25,391 nt of DNA. Source: Elsinoe ampelina. Lineage: Eukaryota. The position numbers were made by a program, and so were the translations under genes. The notes beneath the pieces were generated by a model that saw nothing but the letters and a program-made list of their open reading frames with translations, was not told where the DNA came from and ran no database searches. Where the stretch lies: positions 124,001 through 149,391 of the forward strand of contig ML992521.1 in assembly GCA_010093995.1 (NCBI GenBank). Direction: 5' to 3'. Numbering within the stretch: the stretch's first letter is position 1; each line of letters begins with the position of its first letter. Shown in pieces: positions 2,464 to 25,391 of the stretch.

Positions 2464-5448
2464 TTACTCCCACAAAGGCCTGACAACCTCCACCCCCCTC
2501 TCCACCACCGCTTGCACCCTGTCTTTGAACGACCTCGTCGCACATTCCACCTCCAGACTCTCCAACCACACCTTTGCCACCAATTTCTCCACCTTGACCT
2601 CCAACCCCGGCACCGGAATGCCAAGTCCATGCAACCTCTCCAACTCCCTGACCTCAGCAGCAGCGATCTTCTTCTGCCGTGCAATCTCATCGCCCTCGTC
2701 CCCGCTGATCAAATCGGCAGCCAACTTCGGCTTCTCAATCGGCGTCACCGCGTCACCACCAAAGTGTGATTCGAGGAACATGCACAACCTTGAGAGACGT
2801 TCTTGAGGCGAGAGGTGTGCGTGGAGATTCCGACGTTTAGAGTCCTGGCCGCGGGAGTGGGAGTGAGATCTGCTAGATTCTGTTCACGGTCAGTTCCGCA
2901 CGCATACGTATCGCAGGGGTGGACTCACGCTTGACAGCTGCAGGGCTGCTCTCCACGGTCAGCAGAACGGCCATGACGGCGTCGGCGATGCTGTCGTTGT
3001 GCACGTTGCCTTGCCATTCGACTGCGATTTCGCCTTGGGGTTTCAGGACGACGTTGACGGACCCCATGACTTCGTAGGTCAGCTCGTCTCTGCGGTCGAT
3101 TTCTTCGTCGGCGTCTTCCATTTTGACGTCTTTCTTAGTGACGCCGTTTGTTTCGCTGCCGTGGACTGTGATGCTGCCGAATGTACCCTCTAGTGCCCAC
3201 TTGATGAGGTCTGGTCCGGCGGCGCTCAGAGTGAGTCGCTGCCTGCATTGGATTGTCGTGGTCGTTAGTCCGGCGTACTCCTTGAGATCTTCCGGCGCCA
3301 TGAGGCTGAGCTTAAAGTCATTCTGAACTAGCACGCCGCTTACGATCTGCTCATCGTCGTTGGATATCTTTGGCTTCTTCTCGTCAGAGCCATTCTCGTC
3401 TCCTGATGAGGGAGGTGATGGCAGCGCTGTCGGTAGCTGAATGCGATTCGCCAGCTGTCCAACCACCTTTGCGATCTTGTCGCGACGGAAGGGGATGCGG
3501 AGCTCCTCGCAATTGGCAGGTGAGAAGACCTTTGTGGGTACAGCTTTGTGGGCATTGAGTGAAAGCAGTTTCGATTTGAAGCGCATCATGTTGGTCTTCT
3601 CCCCGTGTACAAGGATCTGCATCATGTCAGTAACCGGAAAGCAGTCTCGGTGTCTGCTATACTCACCACCACAGGAGCATTGACTTCCTCGACGAATTCC
3701 CTATTCTCCGTACCATCTACGTGGGCCGCGAAACTGTACTCCTGCACAGTGCACCTTCTCGGCACCATTACCTTTTCTTCGCCTCCTCTCATCATTCCCT
3801 TCACCCCACTCTGCCTCGCTGTCATGGTCGCCTGAATGCTCTCCGGCTCTGTCATGATCAACCTCGCCATAGTGCCCTCGACACTGTAACCAGTGATGAT
3901 TACGCCATTTTTCGGATCCGGCGCCCACCTCTCCAACAGCGCTCTGCTGACTCCATTCTGCATCATGCCTGGACTCGCCAGCATTACGCAGCCACCAACG
4001 TCCTCGAATCGCTCGAGACTCTTCAATGAGCGGATGAAGCGGAAATCCCATGGTCCGCCACCTGAACCTGTTCCATCTGCCGCTTCAGCGAGCCGTTTCT
4101 GAAACATGTTCTTGATATTGTCGTTCATAGCATCGATGTACGTCTGGTATACGACCATACATTTCTTGGCCAGATTACTGGCATAGTAGATCGGATACTT
4201 CTGATACTCTTCGTGGCGAGCCCAGTAATCCTCCAGAATAAGAAGGAGTTCCTGCGCACGACCAATGGCGAAGACGGGCATGAGCACCCTCCCGCCGCGG
4301 TTCAGGACACCAGTGATGGATTTCAGGAGGGCAGTCTCGCGCTCGAGCCGGGGTACGTGAGAGGCCACGCCGAATGTAGACTCTGTGATGAGGACGTCGA
4401 CTTTTGTACCTTTGGGGACGGAGGCAGGTATCAGATGACGGTCGTACTCGCGAGAGTAGTCGCCGGTGAAGAGGATGGAGAGGCCAGCGATCTCGATAAG
4501 ATACATGGCTGCGCCGAGGACGTGACCAGCTGGGTAGGCCGTAAATCGGATTGAGGAGTGGGTGTGGGTTGCGTAGAAGGCCACCGTCTGAATCATAGGC
4601 AGCGTCGTCATGACATCTTCTTCGTTGAAGAGTGAAGAGGAGGTTTCGGACGAGGATTGTGTGTTCTGGACGCGGACCGAGTCTTGCATGAGCCATTTGT
4701 AGATGGCTTTGGTCGGATGCGTCATGTAGACTTTGCCCTTGAAATTGGTCTTTGCGAGGACGTAGGGTAAGGAGGCAGCATGATCCATGTGGAAACTGTA
4801 GAGTGGTCAGCAGCGTGATTGTGAAGACCGCTTTTGTGTAGCGAGGACCAGCATCGGAGCAAGAACAAAGCGCAGAGAGACAAGTGTAGAAATGATTGCA
4901 TTCATTTGGCTATGTACAGAAGATCTGCAAGAGGACACCTGCAGGACTTTTGCAACCGGTGTAGAACATTTGCCATAGGCTTCGTAGAAGCGAACGGAGA
5001 GGGGAGAGTGCGGGAAGATTTGCCAACGATGTGTCTGTTTGCGCTCCGATGCTGTCCTTACCTACCTGGTGACTTCAATATACGAAAAGGCGGTACTCAC
5101 TGTGTGATGAGAAGGATGTCGACCGTGCTGAGATCGTATTCGTCGTAAAAGGGAAGTGCAGCGAGTCCCTCGTAGGCTGGATGTATGCCTGCATCGAGCT
5201 GGGATCATCAGACAGATGGTATGATTCGAAATTGTCCTCAACGTACCATAACCGTCTTGCCCTTATAGCTAAGGATGTGACAGCTGCGTCCAACCTTTTG
5301 AAGTATGAGCGCTGTGTGCCTCAAGAACATTTCCAAGATTCCGTACCTCGTTTCCACCACCCAGAGCTGTGAAGAGAAGCTCATCGCTGGGGTCGATGGG
5401 GTCTTCCTCTTCGAGCGGAGCACTGTCGAGCTTGCGTTTTGTCGCCAT
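2464..5448 (-). CDS. YSH1: Pre-mRNA 3'-end endonuclease Ysh1/CPSF73 (metallo-beta-lactamase + beta-CASP), 6 exons, 826 aa
   Basis: Exons (minus) 5448-5347, 5294-5247, 5198-5101, 4795-3667, 3616-2929, 2879-2464 total 2481 nt, in frame. Motifs: [37 protein letters not shown] (HxHxDH), [41 protein letters not shown]. Confidence 0.96.
4796..5100 (-). other. Unusually long (305 nt) structured intron 3 of YSH1
   Basis: Donor GTGAGT at 5100, branch GCTGAC at 4811-4806, acceptor TACAG ending at 4796. Removing it restores the His codon CA|T of ITHFHMDH. It contains an inverted repeat at 4844-4860 / 5043-5058. Confidence 0.9.
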
Positions 5449-6024
5449 TGTGCCTTCTGCTCTTCCCTTCAAGCAATACTGGATCCCTGGATGTTTTCGT
5501 CGATCCCAGAGCCGTAGGCAATCTCCTGGCGAGGGATTACTACATGTAGCGCATCGTACTGTGTCGAAAGAGCACAGCTCGACGAATCGATAACGAGGGA
5601 TTATCGGATCTTTAGCTCTTCAGTCGCGTACAAGATTGCTGATGAAGGTTCGACACTGATCGATTGTGAAAGTCTGTGAAAAGGAATGTGAGAACACGAG
5701 TGGAGCTTCACCTACCTCGACAATAGAAGCGCACGGACCATTCGTTAGTCATCCGCGATTCTGCGACAGCTACTCCGTCTTTCACTCCTATCAATACCAC
5801 GCCCGAATCATTGGACAAGCCGTAGCGCTCAGAGTGACACTGTCCCCTCTTTTCGGCGCCGTCAGATTCACCTGGAACGAACTTTGGATCCCCAGGACCG
5901 CCATCGCGACGACTAGGCGATGTGGATGAACGGCACTTGAAAGTCTACTTTGCGGCCCGTGAGGCATCAGCTTCACAGAGTCATAACGAGCGGCTGCTTG
6001 TAGCAGCAACCTGTCGCCGTCGTC

Positions 6025-6066
6025 ATGTCACATCAGATGTCGCCGCCGCAGAGGCCTCAGCAGTTT

Positions 6067-6098
<32 letters not shown>

Positions 6099-7920
6099 CC
6101 CGTTTTCGCCTTTCCAGCAGCAACCGGCTCACTCTCCGCCTGGGATCGCACTCCCTCCAGCGAAACGACAAAGGCTTTCTCCTGGAGTTGGGTCACCGCA
6201 ATTATCAAACAGTCCATTTCCCGAGTCACCCTATGGACCGTACTCGGCACCGGCGGGAAGCCCGCCTCCTTTCAATGTTCCACAACCACATGCGTACAGC
6301 GCTTCTCCTCCCCCCACGGGAGTCATGGGACCACCTCCTCGACCGACGGCAGAGCAAAAAGCGGCCAAGGAAAAGGAGGAGAAGGAGAAGGTCACGGACA
6401 TTAGCGACATCAGCGATGCAATGTGGGGGTCTGGAGTGGATCTTAGGGAGGAAGAGAATTATTTGTCGAGCACGAATCGGACATTCTATGGCTCGCAGTC
6501 TTTCTCACAGTCCTTTGGCGACTCACAATCGACCATCGTCAGCCCGAACAATAGCTTTGGCGCACTGACGCAGAACTTGTCGGGGAGTCAGATACAGGGG
6601 AGTGGACCGATTTCGCAGCCACCATCGAGTATGGAGAGCGTGGAGGCCGAGATCGAGAGGAAGCACCGGGATGCGGCGATGAAATACGCGAAGGAACACG
6701 AGCACCATTTGCGAGATCCATTCTTGCTGGGCAACAGCTTACGGCACAAGATCCACCGCATCGCAGTGAATCAGGGTGTACACTTGGACGTGAGAGGTCT
6801 CTACGAGCCGCCAAAATCCGCGCCAAAGCCTCCACAAAGACCGCAAGGTGTCAATGGGGTATACTCAGTTGGGGACAAAGACACTGGCGTGGCAGCTATC
6901 CGAGCAGACAGCATACCAGAAACACAGCATGCCTTTATCGAAGAGAGCGCGAGATACGCCGATATCCTGTCATTGGTGTCATTGGCGGCGAACGAGCGAT
7001 TACGATCTGTCATTGACGACGCGCACAAGATTGCTCGCGGACGACAGCTGGGCAGTCACGGTGTCGTACCGCCAGATTTCGCAGACATAGCAACGGGTCA
7101 AGGGCAAAGGAGTGCCAGTGTGAAGCCTGAAAGTGTGGTTGGTTCTGCTTGGGACGCGGCGAAGACGCCACCAGCCTCCGCCGATGGTAAACGTGCGTAT
7201 TCTGTGCTTAAGGGCAAGGGTAAAGTACTGACGCGCATCGCAGAAGAGACCGCATCGTTCACTTCATCGCTTCCCTTGCATCTCTCAAATCTCGCAATCA
7301 GTGAGCACAAGGCCGAAGCCGCACGGATCAAACGTCGACAAGAACGTGCTGCGAAAGCGGCAGCTGCAGCTGCAGCGTCCACAGCTCCCGATGGCGAGAC
7401 AGCAATTCCCGGGGCATCGCCCTTGACACCAGCTCCTGGTACGCCAGCTCCAGCTACGCCAATCTCGAACGATAGTCCCGCAAACTCGATCGCTCCAGAC
7501 AAACCTCTCACGAAGAAAGAACGTGAGAAGATGGCCAAAGCAGGGCAGAGTGAGGCTGTCATGCATCGGGCCGCCAACTCCACCGCAGCCATGCAACTCG
7601 GTTTCGGCAAGAAAGCCAAGAAGTACAGCTGGATGACGGGCGGATCTGGTGCAGCTGCCCCCACCAATCCTTTCGCTAAGCCTTCGAAACCTTCGGGTGG
7701 AGAAAGCAAGAAGGAAGACAGAAGTGGCGAGGTCAACGGTGATGTCAAAAAAGAGAAGAAAGGTCTCGGCAAAGAACGCAAGTTTGGGGATTGGAGAGAG
7801 GATGGCGAGCAGGGCAAGGGTGTCCAGCTCAGAGATCTTGTTGCGGTCATGGAGAGGGATGGCAAGAGTAGACGGGCATTGGAGCTTGCTTGGTTGAAGC
7901 TCGAAAAGGAGGGACAGTAG
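6025..7920 (+). CDS. TAF4: TFIID subunit Taf4 (histone-fold TAF4 family)
   Basis: The ORF has DISDAMWGSGVDLREEENYL, a histone-fold-like segment ILSLVSLAANERLRSVIDDA, and the TAF4 C-terminal block HRAANSTAAMQLGFGKKAKKYSWMTGG...VQLRDLVAVMERD. There is a probable 51-nt in-frame intron at 7193-7243 (GTGCGT..CTGAC..CAG). Confidence 0.88.
6067..6096 (+). repeat. (CAG)10 microsatellite encoding poly-Q in the Taf4 N-terminus
   Basis: Ten uninterrupted CAG units, read directly from the sequence. Confidence 0.95.
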
Positions 7921-24322: not shown

Positions 24323-24426
24323 GTCTCTGTGGCGCAGTTGGTTTAGCGCGTAGGTCTCATATCATTCATGATCTACCTCAGTGTAGGGCCATCCTAAGGT
24401 CGCAAGTTCGAGTCTTGCCAGGGACA
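24323..24426 (+). tRNA. tRNA-Met (CAT), elongator type, with a 29-nt intron
   Basis: Acceptor stem GTCTCTG/CAGGGAC; D arm GCGC..GCGC; anticodon arm TAGGT-CTCATA^A-TCCTA with the U31-U39 pair typical of elongator Met; intron 24362-24390 at position 37/38; T arm GCAAG-TTCGAGT-CTTGC; T runs downstream. Confidence 0.95.
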
Positions 24427-25264: not shown

Positions 25265-25391
25265 AGAGCCACAGACTGTAGTCATGGGCGGTTTGAGGGA
25301 GAGCCACAGACGGTAGTCATGGGCATTCTGAGGGAGAGCCACAGACGGTAGTCATGAGCATTTTGAGGGAGAGCCACAGACGGTAGTCATG
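25265..25391. repeat. 35-bp minisatellite, at least 3.6 copies, truncated by the window end
   Basis: GAGCC recurs at 25266, 25301, 25336 and 25371. Consensus is approximately GAGAGCCACAGACGGTAGTCATGGGCATTTTGAGG, with few substitutions. Confidence 0.93.

Follow-up and report, generated by a model that had tools for sequence, protein, structure and literature searches.

A Long Intron with a Conserved Poly(A)-Type Signal in the YSH1/CPSF73 Gene of Elsinoe ampelina: A Candidate for Autoregulatory Intronic Polyadenylation

Introduction

The stretch of 25,391 nucleotides (nt) at positions 124,001 to 149,391 of contig ML992521.1 from Elsinoe ampelina (GenBank assembly GCA_010093995.1), here called the window, includes the gene for YSH1/CPSF73, the endonuclease of mRNA 3'-end processing. 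Why should the third intron of this gene be 305 nt long, among introns of only about 50–60 nt? The initial annotation proposed that it holds an early poly(A) site through which Ysh1 limits its own mRNA. Here, the gene model, the conservation of the intron in fungal relatives, its conserved content, its predicted folding, and the RNA contigs at the locus are described. They indicate that the intron probably contains a conserved functional poly(A)-type signal that is used in vivo, and such a signal would account for its unusual length. All positions below are those of the window.

Gene Model of YSH1 and Its Third Intron

The YSH1/CPSF73 coding region (2464..5448, minus strand) runs from the ATG at 5448 to the stop at 2464, and its six exons encode 826 amino acids (aa). 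The exon translations match the Pfam families Lactamase_B_6, Beta-Casp, and CPSF73-100_C. The product of exon 4 is 100% identical to the 826-aa NCBI protein "Endoribonuclease ysh-1 [Elsinoe ampelina]", which has the same length as the model. Based on the Pfam domains and the identity to the annotated ysh-1, the host gene of the long intron is a core cleavage/polyadenylation factor.

The five introns are located at 5346..5295 (52 nt), 5246..5199 (48 nt), 5100..4796 (305 nt), 3666..3617 (50 nt), and 2928..2880 (49 nt). The initial annotation gave a length of 46–55 nt for every other coding-region intron in the window. This is true for the other four YSH1 introns (48–52 nt), while for the rest of the window a crude intron scan returned mostly false candidates.

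Intron 3 (4796..5100, minus strand) is in phase 2. It is preceded by CA, starts with the donor GTGAGT (5100-5095), ends with CAG, and is followed by T; the CA|T codon that is split in this way encodes the first His of the catalytic motif HFHMDH. Translation that reads through into the intron gives 82 aa, then Q, and then a stop (CAG TGA, with the in-frame TGA at 5099-5097). The catalytic motifs of YSH1 are all encoded 3' of the conserved module at 4919-4894, which is described below. The likely branch site, judged by its sequence, is CTGAC (4806..4810, minus strand), against the branch-site consensus CTRAC. It is followed by 10 nt (4805-4796) before exon 4, the last three of which are the acceptor CAG (4798-4796). 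On the mRNA strand, the intron contains TGTACATA at 4918-4911, AATGAA at 4906-4901, and a T/C-rich tract at 4890-4861.

The initial annotation had described this 305-nt intron, the interruption of the first His codon of the HxHxDH motif, the read-through stop after 83 aa, and the three sequence elements within the intron. The gene model agrees with each of these, and the intron itself is corroborated by the splice joint 4795/5101 in RNA contigs. The immediate stop is incidental: it arises when the donor that follows CA is GTGAGT or GTAAGT, and it is absent in the lineages with GTATGT or GTACGT.

Conservation of the Intron Position and Length

The Ysh1 proteins of 26 named Pezizomycotina were aligned, metagenome contigs were scanned, and the best 80 of 507 stretches encoding relatives were kept. 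Seven of these 80 stop short of the site, 13 encode distant proteins (38–45% identity), and 60 are Pezizomycotina-like. No intron was found at the His codon in the 13 distant stretches. An intron in the same His codon and in the same phase (CA|Y) is present in 59 of the 60 Pezizomycotina-like loci. Its length is 247–408 nt, with a median of 313 nt. For the 114 other introns of these YSH1 genes, which were read from the gaps separating tblastn segments, the median is 58 nt, and 111 are no longer than 120 nt.

Lineages were labeled by the best match to the named proteins, and the labels are approximate. The loci with the intron include relatives of Dothideomycetes (Myriangium, 89% identity; Aureobasidium, 95–99%; Cladosporium, 88%; Glonium, 83–85%), Sordariomycetes (Chaetomiaceae, 97%; Podospora/Cercophora, 96–97%; Cylindrodendrum, 93%; Xylariaceae, 97%), Leotiomycetes (Scytalidium lignicola, 80–92%), and Lecanoromycetes (Pleopsidium, 92%; Xanthomendoza, 80%). 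One locus, L045, is a tentative candidate for a Eurotiomycetes lineage, with a best named match of just 74%.

The sole exception among the 60 loci is L042, which is 95% identical to Tuber proteins. This Tuber-like YSH1 has an A/T-rich intron of ~296 nt elsewhere, at ~4054-4350 of its stretch, after PGMLQ (~residue 362), and this intron contains TGTA and AATAAA. The other intron inferred for L042 is ~95 nt. The ~296-nt intron could be an independent analogue, or introns could be longer in general in that lineage.

The donors of the long intron are mostly of the consensus type. When the introns were sorted into 36 groups of distinct sequence (see below), GTAAGT was found in 14 groups, GTAAGC in 11, GTACGT in 5, GTGAGT in 4, and GTATGT in 2. 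The long intron ends with AAG instead of YAG in 6 of the 36 groups (L015, L018, L024, L030, L032, and L033). An AAG acceptor would be weak and might add to slow splicing. In the window, AAG is the acceptor of YSH1 intron 1.

A Conserved Module Inside the Intron

The long introns of these loci comprise 53 distinct sequences, which fall into 36 groups (lineages) sharing almost no 10-mers. An expectation-maximization (EM) motif search in the 53 introns revealed one common site of 26 nt, which is clear in ~49 of them and is always located in the middle of the intron. Its consensus is near YNUGUAYAYNAGANAUCAAUACAA. The only block kept across the lineages is thus a module composed of UGUA, an A-rich hexamer 10–15 nt farther on, a U-rich stretch, and often HGUGAH. 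The comparison across Pezizomycotina suggested in the initial annotation therefore reveals conservation in both respects: the length is kept in 59 of 60 loci, and the module of UGUA and an A-rich hexamer is kept across many lineages.

In the window, the module is located at 4894..4919 on the minus strand, corresponding to intron positions 181-206. It comprises a perfect UGUACAUA on the RNA strand at 4918-4911, AAUGAA at 4906-4901, and the start of the U-rich stretch at 4895-4888. The sequence UCAUUUCU is followed here by ACAC. HGTGAH is absent from intron 3 of the window.

The specificity of the module was analyzed with a position weight matrix (PWM) that was rebuilt 36 times, omitting the tested group each time. 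The whole locus of 2–25 kb was scanned on both strands. The site in the intron was the top match of the locus in 23 of the 36 groups and was within the top three in 28. For the window, the module ranked 3 of 50,732 positions.

A strict pattern requires TGTA and then, at +6..+25, AATWVA, AATGAA, or AATGGA. It was observed in 19 of the 36 groups, whereas 300 dinucleotide shuffles gave a mean of 1.03 groups and never more than 4. The AATWVA class alone accounts for 14 groups. The spacing in the strict pattern is 10–15 nt and mostly 14–15 nt. When HGTGAH at +54..+72 was added to the pattern, 9 groups were retained, against a shuffle mean of 0.14 and a maximum of 2. The chance of TGTA with an A-rich hexamer in a single intron is ~3% (1.03 of 36 shuffled introns), which is not rare enough alone; the module rises above chance because it is conserved. 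Aligned at UGUA, the introns contain 50–56% A at +5..+24 and 53% T at +25..+29 (33 lineages), and then a C/U-rich region poor in A and G up to about +70.

UGUA and UAYRUA act as efficiency elements or as elements for cleavage factor I (CFI). The poly(A) sites of Neurospora are described as having an A-rich region at -30..-10 and a U-rich region at -10..0. Cleavage falls between C and A, and AAUGAA is the most frequent of the hexamers (PMC5869017). For Fusarium graminearum, a preprint (bioRxiv 10.1101/2021.11.08.467853) describes AATWVA at -25..-10, a peak of U ahead of the site, and a downstream HGTGAH, together with TAKMTA as the efficiency-type motif. The composition and the spacing of the intron module match these rules of Neurospora and Fusarium, and the module has the architecture of a fungal poly(A) signal. 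By the same rules, the cleavage zone in the window is predicted at UACAC (4884..4888, minus strand), with C|A at 4886/4885, 15–20 nt after AAUGAA.

A second word, (U)GUACAUAG(CC) with its close variants, was found in 13 of the 36 intron groups (shuffle mean 0.76, maximum 4). In the Dothideomycetes-like groups, including the window (4917-4910), this word and the module's UGUA element are one and the same. In L011, L018, L026, L030, L033, L045, and L048, a separate copy is located 75–105 nt after the main module, and this copy is possibly a tandem second signal.

Motifs of other RNA-binding proteins were also considered. Mmi1-type UNAAAC and Nab3-type UCUUG motifs were not conserved in the introns when inspected by eye. 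A Puf/Pumilio element is an unlikely identity for the module. Going by a reading of the site listing, and not by a formal count, UGUANAUA is kept at the module in only a handful of lineages, and most have UGUAUACG, UGUAUAUC, or UGUACCNN.

RNA Contigs at the Locus

RNA contigs were taken from assemblies of four runs of E. ampelina (X3, X4, X5, and X7) from three studies, and they were compared over positions 4200-5700 of the window. The contents of the runs were taken as RNA on the evidence of spliced contigs. All four runs contain the joint of intron 1, and X3, X4, and X5 also contain that of intron 2; the runs therefore hold spliced sense RNA. For intron 3, contigs of X3, X5, and X7 show the exact joint (4795/5101).

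Other contigs continue from exon 3 into intron 3 and stop at the module (4895..4900, minus strand). Record 2 of X3 is 260 nt long, and 236 nt of it correspond to 5130..4895; at 4895, it directly abuts 24 letters of Illumina adapter. Record 7 of X4, which is from a different study, is 655 nt long; introns 1 and 2 are removed, and it proceeds from exon 3 into intron 3 and ends at 4900. X7 includes a 113-nt piece at 5130..5018. The positions 4796-4894 are covered by no record in any of the four runs, an absence that was counted only jointly with the contigs that end at the module. The initial annotation had predicted a poly(A) site near 4895-4870, and the contigs of the two studies stop at the upper edge of this range. 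With ordinary unspliced RNA or with DNA carry-over, all of intron 3 and also introns 1 and 2 would be covered, and this pattern was not observed.

In X3, the contig depths are 632 for exons 1–3, 473 for exon 3 joined to exon 4, and 145 for exon 3 continuing into the intron, and 473 + 145 is close to 632. This hints that about a quarter of the X3 transcripts are truncated, although contig depth is a poor measure.

The same contigs bear on a different explanation, in which the module is a site or a structure controlling splicing, such as a Puf-type UGUANAUA, the intron is detained or retained before the RNA decays, and the RNA ends are decay products or assembly artefacts. The perfect UGUACAUA of the window, the stop met at once on read-through, the lack of visible poly(A) in the contigs, and the stem arms and module that form conserved islands in two lineage groups (see below) are all compatible with it. 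A retained intron is, however, expected to be fully covered, whereas the 3' 100 nt are uncovered in all runs and, in X3, the depth over the 5' 200 nt is ~30% of that of the spliced form. Contigs of two studies end no more than 5 nt apart at the module, and a Puf site has no use for the conserved hexamer spacing, the U-rich stretch, or HGUGAH. Splicing control is thus an improbable function for the module.

A Stem Around the Module

In the window, the module is enclosed by two 30-nt arms with 73% complementarity. The 5' arm (5036..5065, minus strand) starts 35 nt after the donor. The 3' arm (4838..4867, minus strand) is located within the C/U-rich tract downstream of the module and ends ~28 nt before the branch site, and the arms are 168 nt apart. 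The pairing of 5065-5036 with 4867-4838 is why intron 3 folds better than its shuffles, with a minimum free energy of -86.3 kcal/mol and a z-score of -3.41. The helix score of the window is 44, compared with a maximum of 32 in 40 shuffles.

Long introns in fungal genomes with short introns often carry small nucleolar RNAs (snoRNAs), and the stable fold in the window would fit an intron that hosts a small non-coding RNA of this type. Rfam showed no match in intron 3 (E-values up to 10), in the introns of the window, or in 16 other loci. Only ~26 nt are conserved across lineages with no general excess of stability, and the RNA pieces are continuous with exon 3 instead of being excised. A small-RNA host is very improbable.

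The folding of the relatives was analyzed between the flanks of the module. RNAduplex was noisy (mean z -0.81; in 10 of 49 introns, 5 or fewer of 100 shuffles were as good), and a local helix score with 40 mononucleotide shuffles was used in its place for 32 groups. The score was above all 40 shuffles in 9 of the 32 groups, and in 16 groups at most 2 of the 40 shuffles were as good. In these 16 groups, the 5' arm starts 15–90 nt after the donor. The 3' arm usually starts 26–74 nt after UGUA, where the downstream element is located. The sequences of the arms differ among the groups, and two within-group alignments show the module and the arms as islands of conservation. Compensatory changes within these two groups are few (0 of 41 and 3 of 40 pairs), and the covariation within groups is weak. 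The support for the stem comes from the fact that unrelated sequences form it in different lineages.

Inverted arms of 30 nt at a distance of 168 nt also resemble a miniature inverted-repeat transposable element (MITE). The length of the intron could thus be the neutral relic of an old insertion, or the conserved block could act at the DNA level as an intronic enhancer, a promoter, or a nucleosome signal. No second copy of the arms was found within the 25-kb window. The position, the length, and the module are kept where the flanking intron sequence cannot be aligned, and the transcript ends, like the asymmetry in composition, are specific to one strand. A recent insertion is also at odds with the presence of the orthologous long intron in distant lineages. 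A DNA-level function or a neutral relic is therefore very improbable.

Zipper stems in long yeast introns bring the donor and the branch site together. The stem in the window resembles them in that the paired intron would be similar to a short one. It differs from them in that a conserved signal is contained in the part looped out, and only about half of the lineages have a significant stem.

Proposed Mechanism

The long intron is proposed to house a yeast-type poly(A) signal, in which UGUA would be the efficiency element and the A-rich hexamer the positioning element, followed by the U-rich stretch and often HGUGAH. This signal would be transcribed before the branch site and the acceptor, which are ~100 nt farther on, and the 3'-end machinery, whose nuclease is Ysh1 itself, might be able to cut before splicing is completed. 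Cutting would produce a short mRNA composed of exons 1–3 and ~200 nt of the intron, encoding 83 residues and no catalytic motif. Splicing would produce the full-length mRNA. Because the gene product would be the enzyme that uses the site, negative feedback on the 3'-processing capacity is the likely consequence.

The flanking stem, observed in about half of the lineages, may shorten the effective distance from the donor to the branch site. Once transcribed, its 3' arm may cover the downstream element and in this way favor splicing. A wider proposal is that the intron is an ancient co-transcriptional switch common to many filamentous ascomycetes, in which a lineage-specific stem, with a 3' arm that overlaps the downstream element, loops the poly(A) signal out of an intron that is otherwise short. 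Whether the transcript is cut (no enzyme) or spliced (enzyme) would then depend both on how active the 3'-end machinery is and on how fast the stem forms. In this complete form, the proposal is tentative and has to be regarded as doubtful.

Several observations weigh against a conserved intronic poly(A) signal with a flanking stem. The strict pattern is satisfied in just 19 of the 36 groups, and the module is weak, atypical, or differently spaced in four (L021, L039, L051, and L058). The conserved element is UGUA(Y)A(Y), unlike the TAKMTA motif reported for Fusarium. The 53 introns overall are no more stable than shuffles (mean z -0.14 against 20 dinucleotide shuffles per intron; 4 of 53 below -2), and in just about half of the lineages does the stem reach significance. 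X5 includes only the fully spliced form. No run of A was found at the contig ends, either at 4895, where the adapter abuts, or at 4900, where there is no loose end, and contigs cannot show true ends. The ends are 0–6 nt past AAUGAA, too close to be cleavage sites themselves, and they fall 9–14 nt short of the predicted cut at 4886/4885, as expected of assemblies from randomly primed libraries, although this is not proof. The library types of the runs, and with them any poly(A) selection, are not on record, and the RNA evidence is from one species only.

Feedback and Comparison with Known Systems

The initial annotation claimed not only a poly(A) site but autoregulation through it. The transcript ends within the intron and the conserved length and module are in line with this claim. 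The feedback loop itself we infer by analogy with CstF-77, PCF11, and RBBP6, and the balance tips slightly toward the intron forming such a loop on the 3'-processing capacity.

CstF-77 is a close parallel. In its gene, an unusually large intron contains a conserved poly(A) site whose strength is medium. The short isoforms from this site have no protein product, and the site responds to the CstF-77 level (PMC3708835). CstF-77 (CSTF3) and its Drosophila homolog su(f) are, like YSH1, core cleavage/polyadenylation factors with the site in an intron far larger than its neighbors (accessible parts of PMC3708835 and PMC7614891). As in YSH1, the intron size and the site are conserved over a whole clade, and the short isoform of CstF-77/su(f) has no apparent protein in the available text (PMC3708835). 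Differences are also found. YSH1 is the endonuclease itself, and its hosts are fungi instead of animals. Its intron is 0.25–0.4 kb compared with tens of kb, and its signal is of the yeast-type bipartite form, while that of CstF-77 consists of AAUAAA and a GU-rich downstream element. The donor in CstF-77 is conserved and weak, whereas the donors of the YSH1 long intron are mostly consensus. For CstF-77 the feedback was demonstrated, while for YSH1 it is suggested by analogy. PCF11 and RBBP6, as far as the available parts of the reports go (PMC7614891, PMC6458999, PMC6428223), are 3'-end factors that limit their own mRNA via an early poly(A) site, as would YSH1, but they are vertebrate genes for different subunits.

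Among fungi, the internal poly(A) sites of Saccharomyces cerevisiae RNA14 give truncated transcripts, and these sites are exonic, unlike the intronic site in YSH1. To our knowledge, S. cerevisiae YSH1 has no intron. Like YSH1, RNA14 is a fungal 3'-end factor gene, and it is listed with functional alternative polyadenylation in the available part of a 2025 review (PMC12667328). RBP35 of Magnaporthe oryzae is another 3'-processing (CFI) gene of a filamentous ascomycete, and it produces polyadenylated sense transcripts that end in an unusually long intron of 211 bp (accessible parts of PMC4288187 and PMC12667328). In the same parts of these sources, the intron belongs to the 5' untranslated region (5'UTR), unlike that of YSH1. 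The transcripts are discussed there as carriers of upstream open reading frames in target of rapamycin (TOR) signaling and are not presented as feedback, and a conservation of the signal module across classes, as observed for YSH1, is not described (PMC4288187, PMC12667328). The genes in the available list of the 2025 review on fungal alternative polyadenylation are SUA7, RBP35, KLCYC1, CBP1, AEP2/ATP13, RNA14, SIR1, and RPB2; YSH1 is not among them (PMC12667328).

No description of an intronic poly(A) site in a fungal YSH1 was found in the literature searched, whose scope left out most subscription journals and closed supplements. In the searchable reviews and papers, a self-limiting early poly(A) site was not listed for CPSF73/Ysh1 or for a coding-region intron of any fungal 3'-end factor. 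The Fusarium Iso-Seq isoform tables (10.1101/2021.11.08.467853) or the 3'-end data from Magnaporthe or Neurospora may already contain the site unnoticed.

The intronic poly(A) site could also be real without any sensing of Ysh1. It would then be a constitutive attenuator, or a switch driven by CFI proteins (CfI25/Rbp35, Hrp1), by the growth state, or by the splicing capacity. UGUA is a contact of the CFI type rather than of the cleavage and polyadenylation factor (CPF) type, and the UGUA element is the best conserved part of the module. All the sequence and RNA evidence for the site fits this explanation equally. The truncated form is absent from X5, which would fit dependence on conditions and equally a difference in depth. 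In the Magnaporthe CFI gene RBP35, the polyadenylated 5'UTR-intron transcripts rise on carbon starvation, according to the accessible text (PMC4288187, PMC12667328). Against a site without a Ysh1 sensor, the module is found in the gene for the nuclease across many lineages, and the simplest account of this distribution is feedback as for CstF-77. The sensor-free alternative is considered unlikely.

Several animal 3'-end factors are known to limit themselves through an early poly(A) site. A feedback loop in YSH1 would add the catalytic subunit, in fungi, with a partly conserved structural feature. This subunit would then be under its own control across a very large group of fungi, among them many industrial species and many pathogens of crops and humans. 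The intron would also be a compact model, 0.3 kb in size and genetically tractable, of the competition between splicing and polyadenylation, for which the module offers several dozen natural sequence variants and an optional flanking stem. If the switch with the stem is real, the YSH1 intron would be a set-point device for the cleavage/polyadenylation capacity in filamentous ascomycetes.

Other Features of the Window

The divergent neighbor of YSH1 is a long open frame on the plus strand (6004-7920; 638 codons from stop to stop). It contains GCT/CAG repeats near its start (~6062-6095), which encode poly-Gln. A transfer RNA (tRNA) gene was detected at 24323-24426 on the plus strand (Rfam RF00005, 53.5 bits). 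It spans 104 nt for a model of 71 positions, and it therefore probably has an intron. A tandem repeat at 25265-25391, with a 35-nt unit and 93% identity between copies, reaches the end of the window.

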